Positions 1,084 to 48,360 of a stretch of 64,000 bases of DNA are shown piece by piece. The stretch comes from Elusimicrobiota bacterium (GTDB lineage Bacteria; Elusimicrobiota; Elusimicrobia; Elusimicrobiales; UBA9959). Where the stretch lies: assembly GCA_036574205.1 (NCBI GenBank), contig JAINCQ010000040.1:1-64000 (forward strand), read 5' to 3'. The translations under genes and the position numbers were made by a program. Positions within the stretch are counted from its first letter, which is position 1. Each line of letters starts with the position of its first letter. Under the pieces are notes generated by a model that was not told where the DNA came from, did not search any database, and was given only the letters and a program-made list of their open reading frames with translations.

Positions 1084-2328
1084 ATGGATATAGACGAGAT
1101 TATAGCTGCGGTTGATATAGGCAGTGATAATATTGTTGCTGCAACTGGAAAACCAACCACAGATAATAAAATAGAGGTTATCTACGGAGCCTGGAGACAG
1201 TGTAAAAAGGGGCTTAAAAATGGGATAGTCACAAATATTTCGGCTCTGTCAAACACATTTAAGGATTTAATGGATGAAATGGAAAGGGAGTCTGGGAACA
1301 TAAGGATAAACGATCTTTATGTTGGGGTGAGAGGATCTCATATAGAATCGATGAACAATAAGGGTATTTATACCGTAACAAGAACCGATAAAGAAATTAT
1401 ATCTGAGGATGTATTCAGGGTCATAGAAAACGCAAAGGCCATTCATCTGCCAAATGAAAGAGAGATAATACATATTATACCACAGGATTTTTCGGTTGAT
1501 AAAGAGAAAGGATTTGAAAACCCAGTAGGAATGGAAGGTAATATCCTTGAAACGAATGTTCATATAGTCACAGCTAATATATCACATCTCAATAATATCT
1601 CAAAGACAATAGCTAACTCTGGCTTTGGGTTGAAAGAGCATATTTATCATATATATGCGATAGGAGAAATAGTTTTAACAGAAGAGGAGAAAAAACTTGG
1701 ATGCGCAATAATAGATATAGGGGATCAGATAACATCAGTAGCTATTTACTATGATGGGAAAATAAGATTCTCAAAAGATATACCTCTTGGCAGTTACTAT
1801 ATAACCAATGATATAGCATTTGCTCTTCACATCCCTTTTGATGTGGCAAATAATCTCAAAGAGACAAAGGGATACGCAATGAGTTCGCTAATTGAAAACG
1901 AGGAAGAGATAGACATAATCTCAATGGATAGGACAAATAAAAAAAAGGTGTCTACATCAACGCTCGTGGAATATATCAAGCCAAGGGTAGAGGAATTGCT
2001 TGTATCAGTTAGAGAAACTATAAACAAAACCGAATATGGTGGTTATGTAAACGGAATAGTTATTACTGGAGGCGGTTCATTGCTTAAAGGTATGAAGGAA
2101 GCGGTGGAAAGAGTTTTTAAAGTTTCTGATGTGAGATATGGAGGTATAAACACAGATTATGTGGAAATAAAAGATAAAAAATACACACATCAAAAATATC
2201 TGACCGCAATTTCCCTGCTCTGTTATCCAGTTTTTATAAAACCGCAATTGGAGCAATTTTTAAATACCGAGCTTGAATCAAATGGTTTATCAGAGTTTTT
2301 TAAATGGGTTAAAAAACTTTTTTCATAA
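1084..2328 (+). CDS. ftsA: Cell division protein FtsA
   Basis: AVDIGS, IIDIG and VITGGGSLL actin-fold motifs; C-terminal amphipathic helix FFKWVKKLF. Confidence 0.97.
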   Translation: MDIDEIIAAVDIGSDNIVAATGKPTTDNKIEVIYGAWRQCKKGLKNGIVTNISALSNTFKDLMDEMERESGNIRINDLYVGVRGSHIESMNNKGIYTVTRTDKEIISEDVFRVIENAKAIHLPNEREIIHIIPQDFSVDKEKGFENPVGMEGNILETNVHIVTANISHLNNISKTIANSGFGLKEHIYHIYAIGEIVLTEEEKKLGCAIIDIGDQITSVAIYYDGKIRFSKDIPLGSYYITNDIAFALHIPFDVANNLKETKGYAMSSLIENEEEIDIISMDRTNKKKVSTSTLVEYIKPRVEELLVSVRETINKTEYGGYVNGIVITGGGSLLKGMKEAVERVFKVSDVRYGGINTDYVEIKDKKYTHQKYLTAISLLCYPVFIKPQLEQFLNTELESNGLSEFFKWVKKLFS

Positions 2329-2350
2329 CTAACCAGGGTTTATTTAAAAA

Positions 2351-3433
2351 ATGACAAATTTAGACATCTATAATGTGAAAGAAGCAAACATCAAAATAAT
2401 AGGTGTTGGCGGGGGCGGCGGCAATACAATTAACAGGATTGCCTCCAGAATGTTCAAAAATGTAGACCTTATAGCGGCAAACACTGATATTCAGGCATTA
2501 AGAGCAAACTCCGCTCCAATAAAAATATCTCTTGGGATGAAACTGACCAAAGGACTTGGCGTTGGTGGAGACCCTGAAAAAGGAAAACAGGCGGCAATAG
2601 AGTCAATTGTGGAGATAGAGAACTGCATTAAAGGGGCTGATCTTGTTATAATAACAGCTGGACTTGGCGGAGGGACAGGGACAGGAGCTGCCCCGGTAAT
2701 TGCTCAGGTAGCTAAAAAGATGAATGCGCTTATTATGGCAGTTGTAACAAAACCATTTAAAACTGAAGGCGCTTATAAAATGGGGCTTGCGGAAAAAGCT
2801 ATAGAAGAATTAAAACCAAATATTGATGCGATGATAATAATCCCAAACGATAAACTTTTAATGCTGGATACAACAAGCAAAAATGCTTACCAGGAAGCTG
2901 ATAAGGTTGTGATAGAAGCAATAACAGGGATAACAGACCTGATAACCACCCCTTCAATGATAAACGTAGATTTTGCAGATATTGAAAGTATTTTAAGACA
3001 ATCGGGAACAGCCCTTATAGGAATCGGAGAGGGGACTGGCGAAAGAAGACATATGGAAGCAATAAAAAAAGCGCTTAGTTTCCCTCTTATAGAAAATGCA
3101 GATATACAAAATTCAAAAGGATTGATAGTTTATTTTAAATGCAGTGACAATTTTAAGACAAAAGAACAACACGAAGTACTGGATTATCTTAACAAAAAAG
3201 TTTCTAACTCTCAGGTTAAAATAAAATTCGGACAACATCTGGATAACGATATAGCTGAAAATAAAATTTATATAACTGTCATAGCCGCTGGATTTGGTTA
3301 TGAAGAAAAATTTTTGACAAAACCATATTATGAGATATTAAATGATCAGATTGAAAATCAACCACGCCCCAATGAAGAGATAAACATGGCAAAACCCGCA
3401 TATTTAAGAAGGAGAACGTCCATACTGGACTGA
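2351..3433 (+). CDS. ftsZ: Cell division protein FtsZ
   Basis: GVGGGGGN, tubulin signature GGGTGTG, NVDFAD T7 loop, C-terminal PAYLRR peptide. Confidence 0.98.
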   Translation: MTNLDIYNVKEANIKIIGVGGGGGNTINRIASRMFKNVDLIAANTDIQALRANSAPIKISLGMKLTKGLGVGGDPEKGKQAAIESIVEIENCIKGADLVIITAGLGGGTGTGAAPVIAQVAKKMNALIMAVVTKPFKTEGAYKMGLAEKAIEELKPNIDAMIIIPNDKLLMLDTTSKNAYQEADKVVIEAITGITDLITTPSMINVDFADIESILRQSGTALIGIGEGTGERRHMEAIKKALSFPLIENADIQNSKGLIVYFKCSDNFKTKEQHEVLDYLNKKVSNSQVKIKFGQHLDNDIAENKIYITVIAAGFGYEEKFLTKPYYEILNDQIENQPRPNEEINMAKPAYLRRRTSILD

Positions 3434-3435
3434 TT

Positions 3436-4530
3436 ATGATAAATTTAAACCTTCTTTTGAAAATAATGGTTCAAAATAACGCAAGCGACCTTCATATAAG
3501 AAGCGATTCTCCAGTATATTTGAGAATAAATGGAAGGCTTGTGCCTATAAAAGATTCTTTCCTAACTGCAGCTCAATTAAACGAGATGATATTGCCTTTT
3601 ATGAATGAGAGGATTAAGAAAATTTTTAATGATACCCATGAGGCGGATTTCTCATATCAAATGGAAGGAGTTGGAAGGTTTAGATTCAATTATTTTTTAC
3701 AAAAAAATAAGCCATCGGTAGCTATAAGGCATATACCTTTTAAAATTCCCACATTTGAAGAGTTGAAACTTCCAGTTCAGCCGCTAAAAAAATTATCATC
3801 AAACGACAGGGGCTTGATCCTCGTAACTGGCATAACCGGCTCGGGAAAGTCGACAACTCTGGCAGCAATGATAGAATATATAAATAATCTTTATGAATAT
3901 CATGTAATAACCATAGAAGACCCGATAGAATATGTATTTACAGACAAAAAAAGCATAATAAGCCAGAGAGAAATAGGAACAGATACAAACAGTTTTGTAA
4001 GCGCTTTAAGAGTTGCACTAAGACAGGATCCTGATGTAATTATGGTAGGTGAGATGAGGGATCTGGAAACAACTCAGGCAGCCATAACAGCTGCTGAAAC
4101 CGGGCATCTTGTTTTTTCCACCCTGCACACAATGAACGCAGTTCAGACAATTTCAAGGATAATAGATCTCTACCCACCGCATCAACAATTACAGGTAAGA
4201 TTACAGTTATCAGAAACATTAAAAGGAATAATTTCTCAGAGGTTGATTGCTTCTTCAAAGGGCGGACGAATAGTAGCAGTTGAGATAATGATAAACACGC
4301 CTCATATAAAAAAGCTGATTGCCGAAAACAATCTTGACGGGGTATATCAGGCTATAGCAAAAGGCGGTTATTACGGCATGCAGACATTCAATCAGTCTCT
4401 GGTAAGCATATATAAATCAAACCTCGCTTCTCTGGAAGAAGTTGTTGCCGCCGCTTCAAATCCTGACGATGTTCTGCTTGCAGTAAAAGGTATAGAGCAG
4501 GATACTGGCAATACCCAGATAGAACCTTAA
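3436..4530 (+). CDS. pilT: Type IV pilus retraction ATPase, PilT/PilU family
   Basis: ASDLH, Walker A GITGSGKSTT, TIEDPIE, LRQDPD, GEMRD, GHLVFSTLH, GMQTF. Confidence 0.92.
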   Translation: MINLNLLLKIMVQNNASDLHIRSDSPVYLRINGRLVPIKDSFLTAAQLNEMILPFMNERIKKIFNDTHEADFSYQMEGVGRFRFNYFLQKNKPSVAIRHIPFKIPTFEELKLPVQPLKKLSSNDRGLILVTGITGSGKSTTLAAMIEYINNLYEYHVITIEDPIEYVFTDKKSIISQREIGTDTNSFVSALRVALRQDPDVIMVGEMRDLETTQAAITAAETGHLVFSTLHTMNAVQTISRIIDLYPPHQQLQVRLQLSETLKGIISQRLIASSKGGRIVAVEIMINTPHIKKLIAENNLDGVYQAIAKGGYYGMQTFNQSLVSIYKSNLASLEEVVAAASNPDDVLLAVKGIEQDTGNTQIEP

Positions 4531-40664: not shown

Positions 40665-40711
40665 CTTGTTAGGAGCTAATCTGCTCCGCTTTTTTGTTGA
40701 AGGAGGATTTT

Positions 40712-41896
40712 ATGAATTTGGCAAAACGTATGAGCAGGCTTGGAACTGAAACAGCTTTTGAAGTTTTAGCAAAAGCAAAAAAACTTGAGGCTGAAGGAAA
40801 GGAAATAATCCATCTGGAAATAGGAGAGCCAGATTTTGACACCCCAAGAAATATAAAAAAGGCAGCGATAGACGCTATTAAATCTGGATATACTCACTAT
40901 ACCCCCTCTGCTGGGATCCCACAGGCAAGAGAGGCTGTGGCAGAATATCTGAATAAAACAAGACCAGGTATTGATGCAAAACCAGAGGATATAGTTATAA
41001 CAGTTGGAGGGAAACCAGTAATGCTTTATACGATAACAGCCCTTGTTGATGAAGGAGATGAGGTTATATGCCCAAACCCTTCTTACCCTATATATGAATC
41101 GCTTGTCAATTTTGTTGGAGGAAAAGTTATTCCAATACATATAAAAGAAGAGAAAGGATTTAATTTTGATGTTGATGAACTTGAAAAACTGATAACGCCA
41201 AAAACCAAACTGATTGTTATAAATTCACCAGCAAATCCAACAGGTGGAGTCATTCCCCAAAAAGATTTAGAAAAAATAGTTGAATTACTAAAGAAAAATC
41301 CGCAAATATACGTTTTATCTGATGAGATATACAGCGAAATTATATATTCTGGTAGTCATTTTTCAATAGCTACATATCCGGGGATGAGGCAAAGAACTAT
41401 TGTGCTTGACGGGCTTTCCAAAACTTACGCAATGACTGGATGGAGACTTGGTTATGGACTCTGTCCATCAGATATTGCTCCGTATATAACCAAATTGATA
41501 ACAAACTCTGTTTCATGCGCTCCCGCTTTTGGACAAATGGCATTGGTAGAAGCTCTTAAAGGGCCACAAAATTCTGTTAAGAAAATGCTCAGAGAATTTA
41601 AGAAAAGAAGAGATGCTATAGTAAAGGGATTAAATGAAATACCAGGTTTTTCATGCCAGGTTCCAAAAGGAGCTTTTTATGTTTTCCCCAATATAACAAA
41701 AACCGGGATGAAATCTCAACAATTAGCAGACATAATACTTTATGAAGCAGGTGTGGCATGTTTAAGTGGAACCTGTTTTGGATCATATGGGGAAGGATAT
41801 TTAAGATTTTCCTATGCAAATTCCCTTGAAAATATAAACAAAGCTATAGATAAAATAAAAGCTATATCAGGAAAGTGGGCAAGTAACGTAAAATAA
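40712..41896 (+). CDS. Class I PLP-dependent aminotransferase (aspartate aminotransferase-like)
   Basis: GEPDF, NSPANPTG, SDEIY, SKTYAMTGWRLG, GAFY, RFSYA; SD AAGGAGG before ATG 40712. Confidence 0.92.
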   Translation: MNLAKRMSRLGTETAFEVLAKAKKLEAEGKEIIHLEIGEPDFDTPRNIKKAAIDAIKSGYTHYTPSAGIPQAREAVAEYLNKTRPGIDAKPEDIVITVGGKPVMLYTITALVDEGDEVICPNPSYPIYESLVNFVGGKVIPIHIKEEKGFNFDVDELEKLITPKTKLIVINSPANPTGGVIPQKDLEKIVELLKKNPQIYVLSDEIYSEIIYSGSHFSIATYPGMRQRTIVLDGLSKTYAMTGWRLGYGLCPSDIAPYITKLITNSVSCAPAFGQMALVEALKGPQNSVKKMLREFKKRRDAIVKGLNEIPGFSCQVPKGAFYVFPNITKTGMKSQQLADIILYEAGVACLSGTCFGSYGEGYLRFSYANSLENINKAIDKIKAISGKWASNVK

Positions 41897-41916: not shown

Positions 41917-43758
41917 TTATTTAGCTTTTGCAAGGGCAAAATAAAAAGTACTTCCCTTTCCCTTTTCAGATTCAAACCATATTCTTCCATTATGTTTTTC
42001 TATAATACTTTTGGCTATTGAAAGTCCAAGCCCTGTTCCATCTGTATTAAGCATGATATCTTTTGAACGATAAAATTTTTCAAAAATATATTTTTTATCT
42101 TCTTCACTTATTCCATAGCCGCTGTCTGAAACAGAAAATACCACTACACTGCCTCTGTCATGAATATTAACATTTACTTCAGAACCACCAGGTGAATACT
42201 TTATAGCATTATCTACAAGATTCATTACTGCCTGCAATATCCATCGTTTATCAACCATTACATAAACTTTATCTGAATTGTGATTAAAATTTATTTTTAT
42301 TTTTTTGAGATATGACTTAAACTGTAAGGATTTTAAAGAATTATCAACAATTTCAATTAAATCATTTTTTTCAAGCTCAATATCCTGCTCCGAGTTGAGT
42401 CTTGAAATATCAAGAAGATTTGTAACTATACCTATCAACCTGTCAGTAGCCTGACCTACCATATTTAGGAAAGCATTCTGCTGTTCATTCAACTCCCCCG
42501 CTTCTCCATTGAGCAATATTGAAACAAATCCCTTTATTGTAGTAAGAGGTGTTTTTATCTCGTGATTTATTGTTGAAATAAACTCATCCTTAATTTTATT
42601 AAGGTTAGCAAGATTGGCAGCATCTATAGAAATATTTCTATAAAGCTCAAATAAATTTACCATAACCGCCAATTCTTTTGAGATTATCTCCATTAACCTT
42701 ATATCATCCAATGAAATTTCTTTCTTCTCAGAAAATCCTGCGACAAGCACCCCGAACTTGTTTTTGGGACTATATATTGGTAAAATGACTGCGGTTTTTA
42801 TTTTATTATCAAGAAAAATCTTGTCTGATATATTCTTTTCATCATAAACGTAAAGAGTATTTTTATTAAGGAAAGATTTTACTATAAGCGAATCATAATC
42901 TCCAAGGTCTATTGAATAATTGGCTATATTTAAATTACCAGGGGCATAAGAATTAGGCGAAAGTTTTTTTTCCATTTCGTTATATGAATAATAAATGACA
43001 AATGTCGGTGTTATTGTGTTATATATCAACTCCACAAGATGTTTTATTGTTTTTCCCATATCATCTGAACTGAAACTTGTTATGCCTTCATAAAAAATTT
43101 TAGATTCCTTGCTTTTCTTTATAAGTCTTGAACCTTGATTTTCAAGTTCTTTAATTACGCTATCTATTTCTATTTTAAGCTTCTTGTTTTCATCAGAAAT
43201 TCTATATAAAGACTCATAATAATTATTTAAAAATCTAAAAAAAGAAAGCATAAATTTCAAATAATGTAAAATGCAATTTTTGTCTTCATCCCCTATATTT
43301 ATTGCGGAAATAATTTTTCTTGTAGATGTAAAAAGCGGCATAAGTATAAATTTTTTATGTTTACCTTCAAAAAGAGTACCTTTTTCCACCACAATAATAT
43401 CGTCCTTTATAGAAGATATGTTTTTTTCTATCTCAGAGAAATCTATTTCATCCCCCTCATTATTTACCCCTCCTATATAAGTCCATTGTCCATCTTTTTC
43501 CTCAAACAAATAAACTGATATATCTGAAAATATAGAAGTAAGCTTTATAAAAATCATGTTAATCAGATTGATATGGTCTTGCCTTGAAAGATTTGCAGAA
43601 ACAGAAAGGGTTGAAGAAACGAATTCATCAAACTTTACATAGAATTTATCAAGATATTCAATCCTGCTATATAAAGGAATAACCTGATAAAATTTTATAA
43701 ACCAATAGACAATAAAGACTAATACAACTATTATTGTAAAAACCGACAGGAAACTCAT
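41917..43758 (-). CDS. Membrane-anchored GAF-domain sensor histidine kinase
   Basis: N-terminal TM; GAF-like AVILPI..FGVL; H-box NHEIKTPL; N-box NLVDNAIKYS; DSGYG, FEKFYR, GTGLGL. Confidence 0.92.
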   Translation of the reverse strand: MSFLSVFTIIVVLVFIVYWFIKFYQVIPLYSRIEYLDKFYVKFDEFVSSTLSVSANLSRQDHINLINMIFIKLTSIFSDISVYLFEEKDGQWTYIGGVNNEGDEIDFSEIEKNISSIKDDIIVVEKGTLFEGKHKKFILMPLFTSTRKIISAINIGDEDKNCILHYLKFMLSFFRFLNNYYESLYRISDENKKLKIEIDSVIKELENQGSRLIKKSKESKIFYEGITSFSSDDMGKTIKHLVELIYNTITPTFVIYYSYNEMEKKLSPNSYAPGNLNIANYSIDLGDYDSLIVKSFLNKNTLYVYDEKNISDKIFLDNKIKTAVILPIYSPKNKFGVLVAGFSEKKEISLDDIRLMEIISKELAVMVNLFELYRNISIDAANLANLNKIKDEFISTINHEIKTPLTTIKGFVSILLNGEAGELNEQQNAFLNMVGQATDRLIGIVTNLLDISRLNSEQDIELEKNDLIEIVDNSLKSLQFKSYLKKIKINFNHNSDKVYVMVDKRWILQAVMNLVDNAIKYSPGGSEVNVNIHDRGSVVVFSVSDSGYGISEEDKKYIFEKFYRSKDIMLNTDGTGLGLSIAKSIIEKHNGRIWFESEKGKGSTFYFALAKAK

Positions 43759-45545
43759 ATAAGGTCTAATATAGCATTAAGATACATTGATTTGGCTTTT
43801 AATCTGTTCAGATATATCCATCCAGTCTTAATATTAAGACTTTCCATTATTTTTTCAGTAATATGCCTGAATTCTTCTTCTTTTGCGCTTAAAGCACTTG
43901 TTGGAGGTGGACCGATAACAACAAGCCCGTTTATATTTTTATCTACGACAAAATTTCCTATCTTAAAAGGAATTCCATATACCTCATCCGGATCATATTC
44001 CTCTACAAAAATATTTTTCCACGAGATATCCATAGATAAAGTTTTTGATAATTCTTCCTTCATTTTGTTAAAAACATAATTTACATAATTTTTCATGTTT
44101 TTAGGACAGAATACTCCCCCTTTATAAAAGCTTTCATCATCATTTGCAGCATAGAAATTGGCGCCGCTTATCTCCTTTTCAGAAGGAGAGCTCATATCAT
44201 CTTTTTCCCCTATAAGCATGGCAATAAGATCCTGATGCAAAAGAGATGGATTAAAAGGAGATATATATTTTTCTAACTTTTTCATTCTAAAAAGTATTTT
44301 ATTTACGGTTCTAAAGTCCATATTCTTAACAACAAAAAAATTCTTTATGTGATCTTCAGAAAGTTTAATATCCATATTAGTCAATATCTGATTTAATATC
44401 ATTCTATATGTCTGCGGATTAGGAGGCTTTATATCAACCATCCATCCCTGAGAAAATTGTATGCCTAACATATTCTCAAGCGGCTCAAGCTCCTGAGGAG
44501 AAAAAAGCGATGAAAAAACAACCTGTTTATTTGATTGCATGGAATTGTTTATAACCTTGGATATAAAAGATTTATTTTCTTTATTTATGAGCATTAAATG
44601 TATATCATCTATTATTATAACCTTACAATCATTTATAATTTTCTCAAGGCTATCAAGAAATGAATTCTTTATTGCAAGATTAACCCCCATAGAAAACTTT
44701 ACACCACTTGTAACGAATATATCCTTCTGCCCAATTGTTGAGGAAAGCCCATAAGACATTGAATGTATAAAATGAGATTTTCCATTGCCGCGAGGGCCAT
44801 ATATCAAAATCGGATTATACATTACGCCTGGGTTTTCAACAACCGCCATAGCTGCTGCATGAGCGAAACGGTTATGAGAAGCAGTTATTAGAGTTTGAAA
44901 ACTGAGCGTGGGATTTAAAGGAAGTTCTATGGACCATTTAAGTCTCAAGCTTTCTATGACCGTTTTATTTACTTTTGTCTGGCTCTTTTTAGCTTTTTCA
45001 TCCTTTTCTTTTCCTTCTTCCTCTGCACTTTTTTTTATCTTATCTAAACTCATTCTCATTGATTGAGACGCAGGCACAGCTGGACCAAAAGATTTGATAA
45101 CTTTTCTATCTGTTTCTTCCTTCCCTTTTTCTTGAGGTTTTGCCTCAACTATTGGCGGTTTTGTATCCTCTATATTACGTTGCTGGGCTTTAACTTCAAG
45201 ATCTGGCATCGGGATAGACAATGAATCAACCTCATTATTTTTAACAGATCCAGCACTAACAAAATCAACCTGAGCATTTGAAACGACAGTACTAGATTCC
45301 GTATCTGTAATTCTTCCACTAGTTATCTCTTCTATAGTTTTCCTTAGTTTTTTATCTACTTCTTCATTAAAATCAAAAAGATATATTAAGAAATTATAAT
45401 CAGAAGAAATTATTCTTTCAGGCCTTGAACATACTGCACCTAATTTTTTAACTATTTTTAAAATATCCTTTAATTCACACTTAAGCAAAAGCATATATTT
45501 GTTTTCTGAGTCTTTAACCTTTGAAGTCTCCCATTTACTAATCAT
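43755..45545 (-). CDS. DnaA/Hda-type AAA+ domain protein, not canonical DnaA
   Basis: LNP.LSFQTLI..HNRFAHAAA.AV.ENPG..YNPILIYGPRGNGKSH, IIDDIH; no recognisable domain IV HTH. Confidence 0.85.
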   Translation of the reverse strand: MISKWETSKVKDSENKYMLLLKCELKDILKIVKKLGAVCSRPERIISSDYNFLIYLFDFNEEVDKKLRKTIEEITSGRITDTESSTVVSNAQVDFVSAGSVKNNEVDSLSIPMPDLEVKAQQRNIEDTKPPIVEAKPQEKGKEETDRKVIKSFGPAVPASQSMRMSLDKIKKSAEEEGKEKDEKAKKSQTKVNKTVIESLRLKWSIELPLNPTLSFQTLITASHNRFAHAAAMAVVENPGVMYNPILIYGPRGNGKSHFIHSMSYGLSSTIGQKDIFVTSGVKFSMGVNLAIKNSFLDSLEKIINDCKVIIIDDIHLMLINKENKSFISKVINNSMQSNKQVVFSSLFSPQELEPLENMLGIQFSQGWMVDIKPPNPQTYRMILNQILTNMDIKLSEDHIKNFFVVKNMDFRTVNKILFRMKKLEKYISPFNPSLLHQDLIAMLIGEKDDMSSPSEKEISGANFYAANDDESFYKGGVFCPKNMKNYVNYVFNKMKEELSKTLSMDISWKNIFVEEYDPDEVYGIPFKIGNFVVDKNINGLVVIGPPPTSALSAKEEEFRHITEKIMESLNIKTGWIYLNRLKAKSMYLNAILDLI

Positions 45546-45548
45546 AAA

Positions 45549-46679
45549 TCACCTTACAATTAACTCCATTATTAATTCTAACGCTATGCTTCTATTAAAA
45601 TTATTTTTTTTGAAATTAACGAAATAAATATTATTATGAGAAAGCGCATTTTCTATTTCATACTTTTTCTCCATAGGCAACTCACCTATAAGGACAACAG
45701 CACAGACTTTCTCCTCTTTTGAATTTAAAAGCACAGAATCAGCGTTAAGATCGTCACTATACGGCAAAACAAAAGCCCTTTTTACAAACATTGGCTTATC
45801 TTTTGAGCTAAGACATATCTCATCTATTGTTTTAAGAGCCTCTTTAAAAACCTCTTCGTCTGAGCCATAAATAAACCCTACACTTTTTATACGTTCAGGT
45901 AAAACCTCAGGTGGTGGTTGTAAAGAAAGATATTTATTTAATTCCATGGAAAATTCAAGGTTTATATTAGAATTAGAGTTTTCATGTCCCATAGTAGCAG
46001 ATACATCGTTTTTTTCAATATCTAAAGCTAACGTTTCTTCAGATTTTTTTATATTATCTTCTAAAACAGGACTAAATTCAATAATTTCATCAGGTTTATT
46101 TTCTTTTAATCCCTCCGACAGGTTTATATCCAGGTTAATATCTTTTTCAATTTTTTCATCATTCTTTTCTTCGGTCTTAACCTCAACACCAACACTATCT
46201 TCATTTGTGTTTACAGAAATATCTTCTTTTTCCTTTTCTCTTTCCAAATTTTGACTATTATCAGCCGTCTGTAAAACAACATCAGAACCTTCCTCCTTAG
46301 TTTCATTGTTATTTACTTGTTCTATATTTTCAGATTTGACCTCAGTTTGATTTACATCTACTTTTTTTTCATCTTTATTTTCAGAAATAATAGTATGGTC
46401 AAACAACTGGATATCATCTAAATTAATATCATCGGTTGTTTTTTTAGAATCATCAGAATTTTCATTCTCGTTATTAATCTTGGAGGTATCAGCGTTTATC
46501 TTTTTTGTCTCTTCTTCCACCAATTGTTTGTCTTTGTTTAAATCAGTCAATTCTTCTTTCTCTTCTGAAGTTTTTTTAACACTATCAAGGACTTCCGGCA
46601 TTTTATCAAGCAAAGAATTCAAATCATTTAAAATATCATCAAAAGACCTTTTTTTATTTTTATCATCACTATTATCCAT
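45549..46679 (-). CDS. Hypothetical protein: short N-terminal helix, long acidic low-complexity linker, C-terminal alpha/beta domain
   Basis: 376-aa ORF with SD GGAG; E/D/K/N-rich middle; 3 nt from the next gene. Confidence 0.8.
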   Translation of the reverse strand: MDNSDDKNKKRSFDDILNDLNSLLDKMPEVLDSVKKTSEEKEELTDLNKDKQLVEEETKKINADTSKINNENENSDDSKKTTDDINLDDIQLFDHTIISENKDEKKVDVNQTEVKSENIEQVNNNETKEEGSDVVLQTADNSQNLEREKEKEDISVNTNEDSVGVEVKTEEKNDEKIEKDINLDINLSEGLKENKPDEIIEFSPVLEDNIKKSEETLALDIEKNDVSATMGHENSNSNINLEFSMELNKYLSLQPPPEVLPERIKSVGFIYGSDEEVFKEALKTIDEICLSSKDKPMFVKRAFVLPYSDDLNADSVLLNSKEEKVCAVVLIGELPMEKKYEIENALSHNNIYFVNFKKNNFNRSIALELIMELIVR

Positions 46680-46817
46680 ATCTATATCTCCAAAAATAGT
46701 ATTTTCTAGAGCTAAACTGTTACCAATATAAATTATACAATTTATTTAATTCATATTTCAGGATCTTTTATGTTTTAGTTTTCGCATAATAAATTCCTAA
46801 AATGTTATAATAATTTT

Positions 46818-48236
46818 ATGATAACAATTAATAATTTAAACCCAAATTTAAGAAAAGCGCAATATGCCGTGCGTGGCAAAATACTTCAACGGGCTTATGA
46901 ACTTGAAAAAAAAGGGAGAAAAATAATTTATTGCAATATAGGAAATCCTCAGGCTTTAAAACAAAAACCTATTACATATGTCAGGCAACTTTTAGCTCTT
47001 ACTGAATACCCATCTCTAATAGACAATCAAAAAAGAGGACTTTTTTTTAATGATGTAATAAAAAAAGCAAAACAAATATTGAAAGAAAATCCAAATGGAC
47101 TTGGAGCCTATACCCAAAGCGAAGGAATGCCCTTTATTAGAAAATCTGTGGCTGAATTTATAAAAAAGCGTGATACAATAGATGCTACTCCAGAGAGGAT
47201 AATTTTAACAGATGGGGCTTCAAAAGGAATTCAGGCAGTTTTTACCCTTTTAATAAAAAATTCAAACTCAGGCTTTATGATCCCGATTCCTCAGTATCCC
47301 CTTTATAGCGCTACAATAGCATTATATGGAGCAAAACAAATAAATTACTATTTAGACGAAGATAAACACTGGGAACTTAATGAGAATGAACTAAAATCAA
47401 GCATTAATGAGGCAGTTAAAAATAAAATAGAACCAGTTGCTATAGTGGTTATAAATCCAGGCAATCCAACAGGGGCTGTTCTTTCAAAAGAAAACATAAA
47501 AATGATAATAAACTTTGCAAGGAAATATAATCTTTCAATACTGGCAGATGAAGTTTATCAAGAAAATATATATAGTTCCAAACATTCCTTTCATTCTTTT
47601 GCTAAAGTAATGTCGGAGATGAAAATAACAGACGTTCCATTATTCAGTTTTCATTCAACCTCAAAAGGCTTTTTTGGTGAATGTGGACATAGAGGTGGAT
47701 ATCTTGAAACAAGAAATGTAGGAGATGATGTATATTATGAAATAATAAAACTTCAATCCATAGGGCTTTGCGCAAATACAGCAGGTCAAATTGTTACTTA
47801 TGCAATGGTCAATCCACCTCAAAAAAATGAAGATAGTTATGAGTTATACATGAAAGAGAAAAATTCAATACTTTCAGAACTTAAGAAAAAAGCTGAAATA
47901 CTGGGGGAGGAATTAAATAAAATAGAAGGGGTTTCCCTTAAAATACCATATGGTGCAATGTATGCTTTTGTAAAAATAGACTTACCCCAACCAAAGGATA
48001 TTAATTTTAAAAATATGACTCAAAAAGAGATTGTTGAGTATGAATCAAAAAGAGATTTTGATTACTGCCTTAATCTGCTTGAAGAAACAGGCATATGCGT
48101 GGTCCCGGGGTCTGGATTTGGTCAGAAACCTCATACATATCACTTCAGAACTACATTTTTGCCGCCATTAGAGGAAATAAAGTATTTTGTAAAAAAATTT
48201 AAAAACTTTCACTTTAATTATTTAAAAAAAATATAA
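46818..48236 (+). CDS. Alanine aminotransferase, GPT/plant AlaAT-like
   Basis: YAVRG, CNIGNPQ, TDGAS, PIPQYPLYSA, INPGNPTG, FHSTSKG..GECGHRGGY, VPGSGFGQ, HFRTTFLP. Confidence 0.9.
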   Translation: MITINNLNPNLRKAQYAVRGKILQRAYELEKKGRKIIYCNIGNPQALKQKPITYVRQLLALTEYPSLIDNQKRGLFFNDVIKKAKQILKENPNGLGAYTQSEGMPFIRKSVAEFIKKRDTIDATPERIILTDGASKGIQAVFTLLIKNSNSGFMIPIPQYPLYSATIALYGAKQINYYLDEDKHWELNENELKSSINEAVKNKIEPVAIVVINPGNPTGAVLSKENIKMIINFARKYNLSILADEVYQENIYSSKHSFHSFAKVMSEMKITDVPLFSFHSTSKGFFGECGHRGGYLETRNVGDDVYYEIIKLQSIGLCANTAGQIVTYAMVNPPQKNEDSYELYMKEKNSILSELKKKAEILGEELNKIEGVSLKIPYGAMYAFVKIDLPQPKDINFKNMTQKEIVEYESKRDFDYCLNLLEETGICVVPGSGFGQKPHTYHFRTTFLPPLEEIKYFVKKFKNFHFNYLKKI

Positions 48237-48272: not shown

Positions 48273-48360
48273 GGGCTGGTGGCGGAATTGGTAGACGCGA
48301 CGGACTTAAAATCCGTTGGCTGATTAAACAGCCGTGCGGGTTCGAGTCCCGCCCTGCCCA
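48273..48360 (+). tRNA. tRNA-Leu (anticodon TAA)
   Basis: Cloverleaf with D-loop GGTAGACG, anticodon arm ACGGA-CTTAAAA-TCCGT, long variable arm, T arm GCGGG-TTCGAGT-CCCGC, discriminator A; CCA not encoded. Confidence 0.96.

Follow-up and report, generated by a model that had tools for sequence, protein, structure and literature searches.

A DnaA paralogue with an exchanged C-terminal domain, encoded between an acidic protein and a histidine kinase: a candidate signalling module of the Elusimicrobiota

Why would a relative of the replication initiator DnaA be encoded between an acidic protein and a histidine kinase? The question is raised by three minus-strand genes in a stretch of 64,000 nucleotides from an Elusimicrobiota bacterium (contig JAINCQ010000040.1 of assembly GCA_036574205.1; the whole stretch is called the window here), which corresponds to contig C34 of a 1.85-Mb genome in 43 contigs that is 95% complete. 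We refer to the three genes as A, D and K:

45549-46679, minus strand: gene A, putative acidic partner protein of 376 amino acids (open reading frame; no Pfam family)
43755-45545, minus strand: gene D, DnaA paralogue without DNA-binding domain, 596 amino acids (open reading frame; Bac_DnaA match)
41917-43758, minus strand: gene K, membrane-anchored histidine kinase with predicted cytoplasmic sensing, 613 amino acids (open reading frame; HisKA and HATPase_c matches)

The answer that we favour, and to which we assign a probability of roughly 45%, is that A, D and K constitute a single signalling module specific to the Elusimicrobiota, in which D, together with A, would act as the cytoplasmic input or scaffold of K. 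It builds on what sequence comparison and predicted structures establish for the trio: its domains, the state of their motifs, how far they are conserved, the order of the genes and their evolutionary origin. The tight coupling of the genes asserted in a preliminary description of the locus is borne out by the DNA: the stop codon of A is followed after a 3-nt gap by the start codon of D (TGA-ttt-ATG), the stop of D and the start of K overlap in ATGA, and the bordering genes at 40694-41896 and 46818-48236 both lie on the plus strand. No minus-strand terminator-like site was found inside the operon. The same description put the module forward as a candidate undescribed one, and our literature search, made at the level of abstracts, found no paper on the A-D-K arrangement or on the D family.

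The central protein, D, keeps much of the layout of DnaA. In an AlphaFold2 model built from 30 sequences (mean predicted local distance difference test score, pLDDT, 73; predicted template modelling score, pTM, 0.60) and in the family alignment it falls into four parts:

45312-45545, minus strand: N-terminal alpha/beta domain, residues 1-78 (strand-strand-helix-strand-helix; block-mean pLDDT 74-91)
44946-45311, minus strand: disordered linker, residues 79-200 (pLDDT 30-38; length highly variable)
44211-44936, minus strand: DnaA-type AAA+ domain III with lid, residues 204-445 (Foldseek matches; invariant Walker A and B)
43758-44138, minus strand: (beta-alpha)4 C-terminal domain in place of DnaA domain IV, residues 470-596 (block-mean pLDDT 87-94)

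The sole Pfam match of D is Bac_DnaA (residues 210-370, E 2e-28). DnaA_N is not matched, and Bac_DnaA_C (PF08299) was found neither in the window protein (E up to 0.1) nor in seven relatives (E up to 0.01), so that D had rightly been described as a DnaA-like ATPase lacking the DNA-binding domain. Its best structural matches in Foldseek are DnaA structures (8btg_A, E 5.3e-10; 8bv3_A and 2z4r_A, template modelling (TM) scores 0.71 and 0.72), and Hda ranks after them (E 1.8e-6). On the DnaA equivalog model TIGR00362 the window protein scores 136.9 bits, below the cut-off of 343.9. Walker A (GPRGNGKSH; G250, G253, G255, K256) and Walker B (IIIDDIH; D313, D314) are invariant in the 30 aligned sequences and are retained in 34/34 D sequences of the motif table. 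Box VII, which reads ERLISRF in the genome's own DnaA, reads ENMLGIQF in D, with M and Q in place of the arginines, and the QGWMVD-K block of this region is nearly invariant. The sensor II (box VIII) column holds R in the window protein (MDFRTV) and G, N, S or other residues in most relatives of its class.

The two outer domains are the unfamiliar parts of D. Within the N-terminal domain M1, K4, W5, D27, K33 and S40-E43 are invariant, and its structural neighbours in the Atlas are small dimerising alpha/beta domains of the RpoL/Rpb11, Pcc1 and ACT-like kinds (TM 0.59-0.71), a likeness of the model that we take as a lead only. The C-terminal domain belongs to no Pfam family and its profile has no sequence match in the PDB below E 0.05; in the Atlas its neighbours include Argonaute (TM 0.68) and lumazine synthase (TM 0.63). 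It comprises four beta-alpha units with GPxP after strand 3, where no receiver-type aspartate is present. Searched against 1.84 billion representatives, its profile gave 159 matches (E up to 0.001), and among the best 150 of these, 118 also carry a DnaA-type AAA+ region and 32 are short fragments, which is why we regard the domain as private to the D family.

One codon of this domain calls for a remark. The window has GGG (Gly) as codon 476 of D (44118-44120, minus strand), whereas each of the 30 family members in the alignment has Trp at this column, including a cluster representative that is 99.8% identical. A Logan contig of the probable source run (depth 16.8) has an adenine at 44120 (plus strand), giving TGG (Trp). 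The Gly codon of the window record thus probably goes back to a mistake in assembly or polishing, or else to a minor variant. This metagenome, stored as contigs, is the only run found to contain the stretch, and no RNA data set was listed as containing it.

Is D then the initiator of this bacterium? A separate canonical dnaA, which the preliminary description had proposed to look for, lies on contig C27; its product reaches 438.9 bits on TIGR00362 with the domains DnaA_N, Bac_DnaA and Bac_DnaA_C (the last at E 3.1e-27), and dnaN and a gene for DciA come after it. Since the canonical gene stands there in this company, D is not the initiator. Its origin becomes apparent from other lineages, for which we use codes as family and genus labels (f1, f2, f8, f18, g8, g18 and so on, f1 being the family of the window); the genomes compared are related and not independent, and all counts describe distribution and carry no statistics. 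The four deepest D members, which come from other classes, have canonical sensor I (TSD[RK]PP), box VII (LEDRLRSRF) and sensor II (SN[IV]RELEG) motifs. In the window's class the box VII arginines have been lost and the sensor II arginine mostly as well; in family f2 the second box VII position is often R or K. In 5/5 deep-branching genomes D reaches 352-378 bits on the DnaA equivalog model, above its cut-off, over domain III only, and the same 5/5 genomes hold a separate full-length DnaA of 483-562 bits. The deep D proteins (5/5 scanned) match Bac_DnaA with 233-242 bits and lack Bac_DnaA_C, and the N- and C-terminal domains of D are common to all members, the deep ones included. From these sequences and models we conclude that D is a true DnaA paralogue, which would have arisen by duplication of dnaA early in the phylum with exchange of domain IV, that it was already coupled to K at the time of this exchange, and that the arginine finger degenerated later. 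As the helix-turn-helix of domain IV has been replaced, D cannot read DnaA boxes.

The D family also shows some departures from the common form. In family f2 the protein is 1091-1624 amino acids long (L032:7220-10840, minus strand; L033:7398-12272, minus strand; L034:4270-7545, plus strand), its linker being expanded to 700-1100 residues with tandem repeats, acidic and rich in proline, of about 50 residues each. In one deep-branching genome (L050:7070-9111, minus strand) D is split into a 227-amino-acid reading frame with the N-terminal domain and linker and a 448-amino-acid frame with the AAA+ and C-terminal domains, which may reflect a frameshift, a genuine split of the gene or faulty assembly. 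Two D-type genes, of 798 and 681 amino acids, lie on different contigs of a genome of family f2, genus g18 (G081; loci L046 and L047); neither has A or K alongside.

Protein A had been characterised as a largely disordered acidic protein. This holds for its middle part, and it misses two conserved elements on either side of it that emerge from an alignment of 17 orthologues (216-773 amino acids) and from the model, namely an N-terminal motif and a C-terminal domain of about 125 residues:

46572-46655, minus strand: N-terminal helical motif, residues 9-36, consensus EEILxDLNxLLxKMPxIL (alignment and model)
45951-46568, minus strand: acidic disordered region, residues 38-243 (mostly pLDDT <50)
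45552-45914, minus strand: folded (beta-alpha)4 C-terminal domain, residues 256-376 (block-mean pLDDT 90-95)

The motif is modelled as two helices (13-25 and 27-35), and L20, L24 and P28 are invariant in the 17 orthologues. The acidic region (29% D+E, net charge -35), in which only short stretches exceed pLDDT 50, is variable and accounts mainly for the length range of the orthologues. In the C-terminal fold (residues 264-375) strands 264-271, 298-306, 327-331 and 352-356 are modelled with helices between them. With VIA-align the top matches of this domain are Piwi/Argonaute MID domains (Z 11.4, 10.7 and 10.6; root-mean-square deviation 2.8-3.6; 107-114 residues), the best of them aligning 114 residues at Z 11.4, deviation 2.9 and 8% identity; B12-binding and CheY-like domains rank next at Z of about 9, and with this aligner best Z values of 7-8 are common for (beta-alpha)n folds. 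Foldseek matches the domain to Argonaute and to lumazine synthase (E about 1e-3), and a PDB sequence search with the profile returned nothing below E 0.05. In the models the secondary-structure elements of the C-terminal domains of A and D match in order and spacing. We also considered both domains as CheY-like receivers and rejected this: each has four units and no phospho-acceptor aspartate (in A an invariant G332 and then a variable residue follow strand 3), and the fold similarity reaches Z of about 9 only.

The third protein, K, is an ordinary HisKA kinase by its catalytic part, and the earlier statement that all catalytic boxes are present proved correct:

43684-43749, minus strand: N-terminal hydrophobic helix, residues 4-25 (read from sequence)
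42658-43059, minus strand: GAF-like sensor domain, residues 234-367 (GAF_2, E 9.8e-4)
42391-42591, minus strand: HisKA (dimerisation and histidine phosphotransfer, DHp) domain with H399, residues 390-456 (HisKA, E 4.2e-16)
41929-42252, minus strand: HATPase_c catalytic domain, residues 503-610 (HATPase_c, E 9.7e-30)

The HisKA and HATPase_c matches both exceed their cut-offs. H399, N513/N517, D545-G547-G549, F559/F562 and G574-G576-G578 are invariant in 14 orthologues, and so are W19, F23 and P28 in and next to the N-terminal helix. This helix is the only hydrophobic one near the N-terminus, with nothing before it and no room for an extracytoplasmic domain; a conserved region that includes a coiled-coil-like stretch comes next, and then the GAF-like domain. 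K is thus predicted to be wholly cytoplasmic and tethered to the membrane. The GAF_2 model is matched with 51.7-140.8 bits by 6/6 orthologues from other families, all of which have the architecture GAF-HisKA-HATPase without a receiver. None of the curated kinase equivalogs is reached by K, the best being PnpS with 197 bits against a cut-off of 400.

Where would the phosphate go? As had been noted, no response regulator is encoded in the operon or elsewhere in the window: the genome has 25 matches to receiver domains, 0 of them on contig C34. The label of an orphan kinase fits K in the window's lineage and fails in family f18, where a PilT-like gene, D, K and a gene for a single-domain CheY-like receiver directly after K follow one another on one strand in 8/8 loci long enough to judge, with a weak A-like gene between the PilT-like gene and D in 3/8. 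The best matches of this f18 receiver in the window's genome are generic (33-36% identity), and no orthologue can therefore be named. The genome does encode at least three orphan single-domain receivers of 120-123 amino acids, which lie among housekeeping genes with no kinase alongside (loci L059-L061):

Contig C10, 27611-27979, plus strand: orphan receiver
Contig C4, 35192-35563, minus strand: orphan receiver
Contig C8, 14442-14804, plus strand: orphan receiver

Their neighbours are genes for a hexapeptide transferase and an HhH-GPD glycosylase, for an epimerase, and rpe and rpsP. The receiver of K in this genome is probably one of these at least three proteins.

The conservation of the neighbourhood, which had been named as a check on the proposal, turned out to be considerable. 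Relatives of D are annotated as Elusimicrobiales or Elusimicrobiota. Within the window's order D is present in 40/41 genomes, the sole miss being a genome that is 60% complete, and A in 26/41 (0/14 in family f2). We compared 20 loci of the order that were chosen through D, and 14 more distant loci besides. In the former, A is directly 5' of D in 17, K directly 3' of D in 15, and A-D-K complete in 15; the five exceptions are three f2 loci without A and K and two loci of genus g8 with A and without K. In the latter, K directly follows D in eight and A precedes D in six. Wherever A is found it is directly upstream of D (17/17 and 6/6 loci), and in the loci examined it never occurs apart from D. 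Across 301 genomes of the phylum the profile of the D C-terminal domain matches 162 (f1 21/21, f2 88/88, f8 23/27, f15 0/89) and that of the A C-terminal domain 46 (f1 21/21, f6 4/4, f7 1/1, f8 17/27, f2 0/88); a profile of the K sensor region matches 115/301, a number that is no count of orthologues as generic GAF domains are matched too. Neighbouring D and K genes on one strand occur in 44 genomes (20 of f1, 20 of other families of the class and four of other classes), and in two further genomes the two genes lie on different contigs. The complete A-D-K order extends through the window's class. Family f2 lacks both A and K (0/88 genomes each). Because the A-D-K arrangement recurs in this way across the phylum, it is not a chance arrangement.

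How might such a module work? D would have kept the DnaA plan of a small N-terminal domain, a flexible linker and AAA+ domain III, with domain IV swapped. Since Walker A and B are intact but the arginine finger is gone, we take D in the window's lineage for a switch or scaffold that binds ATP, and not for a filament that hydrolyses it as DnaA does. A, with its conserved N-terminal helix, its acidic disordered spacer and a C-terminal domain of the fold class of D's, would be a dedicated partner of D. K has no outside domain and a single membrane helix, and its signal must therefore be cytoplasmic; the assembly of D and A, or a ligand held by D/A or by the GAF domain of K, would set the autophosphorylation of K, and K in turn would hand its phosphate on to a stand-alone CheY-like receiver, whose gene is part of the operon in f18 and lies elsewhere in the window's genome. 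We favour D/A as the input of K because K has no other obvious input, because the ATP site of D is strictly conserved, and because the D-K pair predates the divergence of the phylum's classes. Physical binding among the three proteins, the direction of the signal and its cellular target are what we infer from all this. A predicted complex of full-length D, ATP and the A C-terminal domain gave an interaction prediction score from aligned errors (ipSAE) of 0.00 in two runs, which counts neither for nor against binding.

Several observations weigh against this interpretation. D evidently works without K, as is seen in family f2 (D in 88/88 genomes, A and K in 0/88 each) and in genus g8, which has A and D and no K; K would therefore be accessory to the core function of D. 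Genes with clearly no relation to the trio (deoC, an aminotransferase gene and comM-dprA-topA-xerC) are part of the conserved block as well, so that long-range synteny is no proof of shared function. A comparison of the C-terminal profiles of A and D with hhalign is not significant (probability 2.9%, E 0.015, over 108 colinear columns), and the profile of the D domain finds no A, with 0 of the 150 listed representatives matching the A profile; therefore we claim for the two domains the same fold class and no homology. Finally, the GAF_2 match of the window K itself, at 19.8 bits, is under the Pfam cut-off of 28.6.

The idea can be taken further into an evolutionary scenario, for which the odds are rather low. 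In it, a DnaA-family protein would have been turned from an initiator reading DNA boxes into an input device of a two-component system. Ancestral D, a fully competent DnaA-type ATPase without the part that reads the boxes, as it still exists in deep branches of the phylum, would assemble with ATP, together with DnaA or on single-stranded DNA, and its state would be passed on through the GAF kinase to the CheY-like receiver; D of the window's lineage would be a cap or scaffold without arginine finger that has a dedicated acidic partner. If this were true, there would be a direct link from the state of replication, or from incoming DNA, to cell behaviour such as pilus retraction.

Among the alternatives to a signalling module, regulation of chromosome replication through DnaA itself survives best, unlikely as we hold it to be. 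Here D would join or cap DnaA oligomers at the origin, with K coupling it to a two-component output, and D of the window's lineage could accept the arginine finger of DnaA while offering none. Much about D agrees with this: it derives from DnaA, its deep members retain all oligomerisation and ATPase motifs of DnaA (sensor I, the two arginines of box VII and that of sensor II), the ATP site is intact throughout the family, and loss of the arginine finger alone would fit a subunit that caps a chain. The genes comM, dprA, topA and xerC are also neighbours in most lineages. An invariant WSxELPL block stands just before domain III, the place of the clamp-binding motif in Hda, whose consensus is QL[SP]LPL; the block, however, lacks the leading glutamine of such motifs. 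D moreover is not beside dnaA, dnaN and dciA, which form a cluster of their own on C27; it scores 39.1 bits on the Hda model TIGR03420 against a cut-off of 194.8; and in the window's lineage it is missing the arginine finger that Hda-type inactivation of DnaA needs. The QGWMVD-K region replacing box VII is itself highly conserved, which suggests a new interface and not decay. The hypothesis of the preliminary description, that the system acts on replication initiation or on polar or cell-cycle organisation, is unsupported by our analysis.

A quite improbable explanation is that there is no functional link at all, K being an ordinary kinase that follows D in a slowly rearranging housekeeping block and A a lineage-specific protein with a separate function. 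The block does keep unrelated genes in order phylum-wide, and D occurs without K in the f2 genomes and in g8. Against mere neighbourhood speak the start and stop codons that overlap or nearly touch in the window, the adjacency of D and K in 44 genomes including other classes, the fact that A was never met away from D, and the joint loss of A and K in family f2.

We give little credence to the module being a control of type IV pili or of DNA uptake, by which D, A, K and a receiver would regulate PilT, or D, which may bind single-stranded DNA, would sense DNA as it comes in. What recommends it is gene order in other lineages. In 15/22 loci outside the window's order the gene directly 5' of A/D, on the same strand, is of the PilT family (T2SSE, E 2e-39 to 1.4e-47), the f18 block ends with a single-domain receiver in 8/8, an output typical of motility control, and the transformation genes comM and dprA are found downstream in many lineages. 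Inside the order, however, the PilT-like neighbour is seen in 0/20 loci, and the best PilT-like gene of the window is 38 kb off, directly after ftsA-ftsZ. The genome has three PilT paralogues, which makes the orthology uncertain, and since long-range synteny in this phylum includes such unrelated genes as deoC and the aminotransferase gene within the same block, the PilT link has to be weighed cautiously.

The PilT-like gene in question belongs to a plus-strand group at 1084-4530, in which ftsA (1084-2328), ftsZ (2351-3433) and the gene of the PilT-family ATPase (3436-4530) are separated by gaps of 22 and 2 nt; of all genes in the genome it best matches, at 47% identity, the PilT-like gene directly 5' of A/D in other lineages. 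A link of ftsA-ftsZ to the module was considered and dropped, neither gene having been found in the 42 fetched loci of relatives.

We consider it very unlikely that D loads the replicative helicase in the manner of DnaC/DnaI, or that it belongs to a mobile element or a defence system: its weak matches to IstB, DnaI and DnaC models (28.7, 24.3 and 23.7 bits) and the Pfam family IstB_IS21 recorded on many D family members are offset by scores far under the cut-offs of 228-357 (IstB 300, DnaI 228) and by the much higher scores of D on DnaA models, the identity as a loader is rejected because the helicase operator DciA is already encoded beside dnaN, the single-copy, syntenic housekeeping position of D across the phylum argues against this reading, and the identity as a defence system is rejected as PADLOC gave generic ATPase fragments only. 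Two papers on DciA report it in Elusimicrobia. The data set of PMC5109545 includes Elusimicrobium minutum, a cultivable species of the phylum, which may belong to the D-only family f2.

Some observations on the surroundings of the operon remain to be recorded. Upstream of A a GGAG stands 8 nt ahead of its ATG, and a possible promoter can be pointed out:

46732-46761, minus strand: candidate sigma-70-type promoter 5' of A, CTGAAA and TATAAT with 18 nt between them (weak)

Promoter-like sites in the region number 31 against 27.8 expected from shuffled sequences, and in view of this lack of enrichment the candidate is weak. The aminotransferase-like gene at 40694-41896 (plus strand), which is convergent with K, has counterparts in relatives that are 58-61% identical; they directly follow D-K-receiver in four f18 loci and D in two others (L044 and L050). 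There they share the strand of the operon, which makes the window copy look inverted. A gene for a protein of 369 amino acids after D/K in relatives was considered as dnaN, with recF and gyrB as neighbours, and rejected as such: it belongs to no Pfam family and its neighbours are comM, dprA and topA. The window's genome offers no clear equivalent of it (E 3e-12 over 115 amino acids), nor of a HEAT/zinc-ribbon gene 5' of A in relatives (E 0.0033). On the other side of the operon a tRNA gene of 88 nt (48273-48360, plus strand; 59.6 bits) follows the upstream aminotransferase gene, and a short G+C-richer stretch after it holds an open reading frame of 80 amino acids that is probably no gene.

No bacterial replication protein is more conserved than DnaA, and the paralogues known so far, Hda and HdaA, are short AAA+ proteins that inactivate it. 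The D family is set apart from these as a phylum-wide, single-copy family in which the DnaA plan is kept with the DNA-reading domain swapped for a new alpha/beta domain, which is fixed beside a histidine kinase, and which grades, in a clear evolutionary series, from an ATPase that is DnaA-like throughout to a form lacking the arginine finger. Should D communicate with DnaA, it would represent a new control of initiation in a poorly studied phylum; should it feed the kinase, it would be the first DnaA-clade protein to serve as a signalling input. Either way, the proteins are testable and the motif series is a natural one for experiments.

How does the trio compare with systems already known? 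With DnaA, D shares the four-part plan of small N-terminal domain, flexible linker, AAA+ domain III and C-terminal domain, and its domain III is DnaA-like by sequence and fold, the deep members passing the equivalog cut-off over this domain. It differs in that the helix-turn-helix of domain IV is replaced by the family-private (beta-alpha)4 domain, that DnaA_N is not matched, that the window's class has lost the box VII arginines and does not conserve the sensor II arginine, and that a canonical dnaA-dnaN-dciA set exists beside it. Hda, a protein of about 230-250 amino acids, has no domain other than AAA+; it carries a motif for clamp binding at its N-terminus and cannot do without its arginine finger. 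Like Hda and HdaA, D is a DnaA-related AAA+ protein without DNA-binding domain whose gene lies apart from dnaA; in contrast to Hda it has 596 amino acids with additional N- and C-terminal domains, is coupled to a kinase and, in the window's lineage, has no arginine finger. Judged by sequence, D belongs to the DnaA clade of AAA+ proteins, yet by defining features it is neither DnaA nor Hda. A further DnaA-related protein for comparison is HdaB (PMC7049699).

For the coupling to a kinase the resemblances are of a looser kind, since they concern the way of working and not descent. In the cyanobacterial KaiC-SasA-RpaA system an ATPase is read by a histidine kinase whose regulator is unlinked. The analogy to D and K is a works-like one only, of a protein whose nucleotide state would be the cytoplasmic input of a kinase without outside sensor, with the regulator elsewhere; KaiC is of the RecA superfamily and not of the DnaA clade, and SasA binds through a KaiB-like domain, whereas K has GAF-type domains. 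A relation in sequence or fold did not come to light, and no search was aimed at one. In Caulobacter, SpmX-DivJ, PodJ-PleC and PopZ are examples of disordered polar scaffolds that recruit histidine kinases. A resembles these in its short N-terminal helix, its long acidic disordered spacer, its folded C-terminal domain and the co-encoded kinase, but has no known sequence similarity to them, and its C-terminal domain is of the (beta-alpha)4 type and not a helical oligomerisation domain. The Argonaute/Piwi MID domain is the best fold match of this domain, and Argonaute is also among the neighbours of the C-terminal domain of D; with sequence identities of 6-13% to Argonaute MID and flavodoxin-like domains, however, we claim membership in neither group. 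From CheY-like receivers, finally, the C-terminal domains of both A and D are distinguished by having no conserved aspartate at the end of strand 3.

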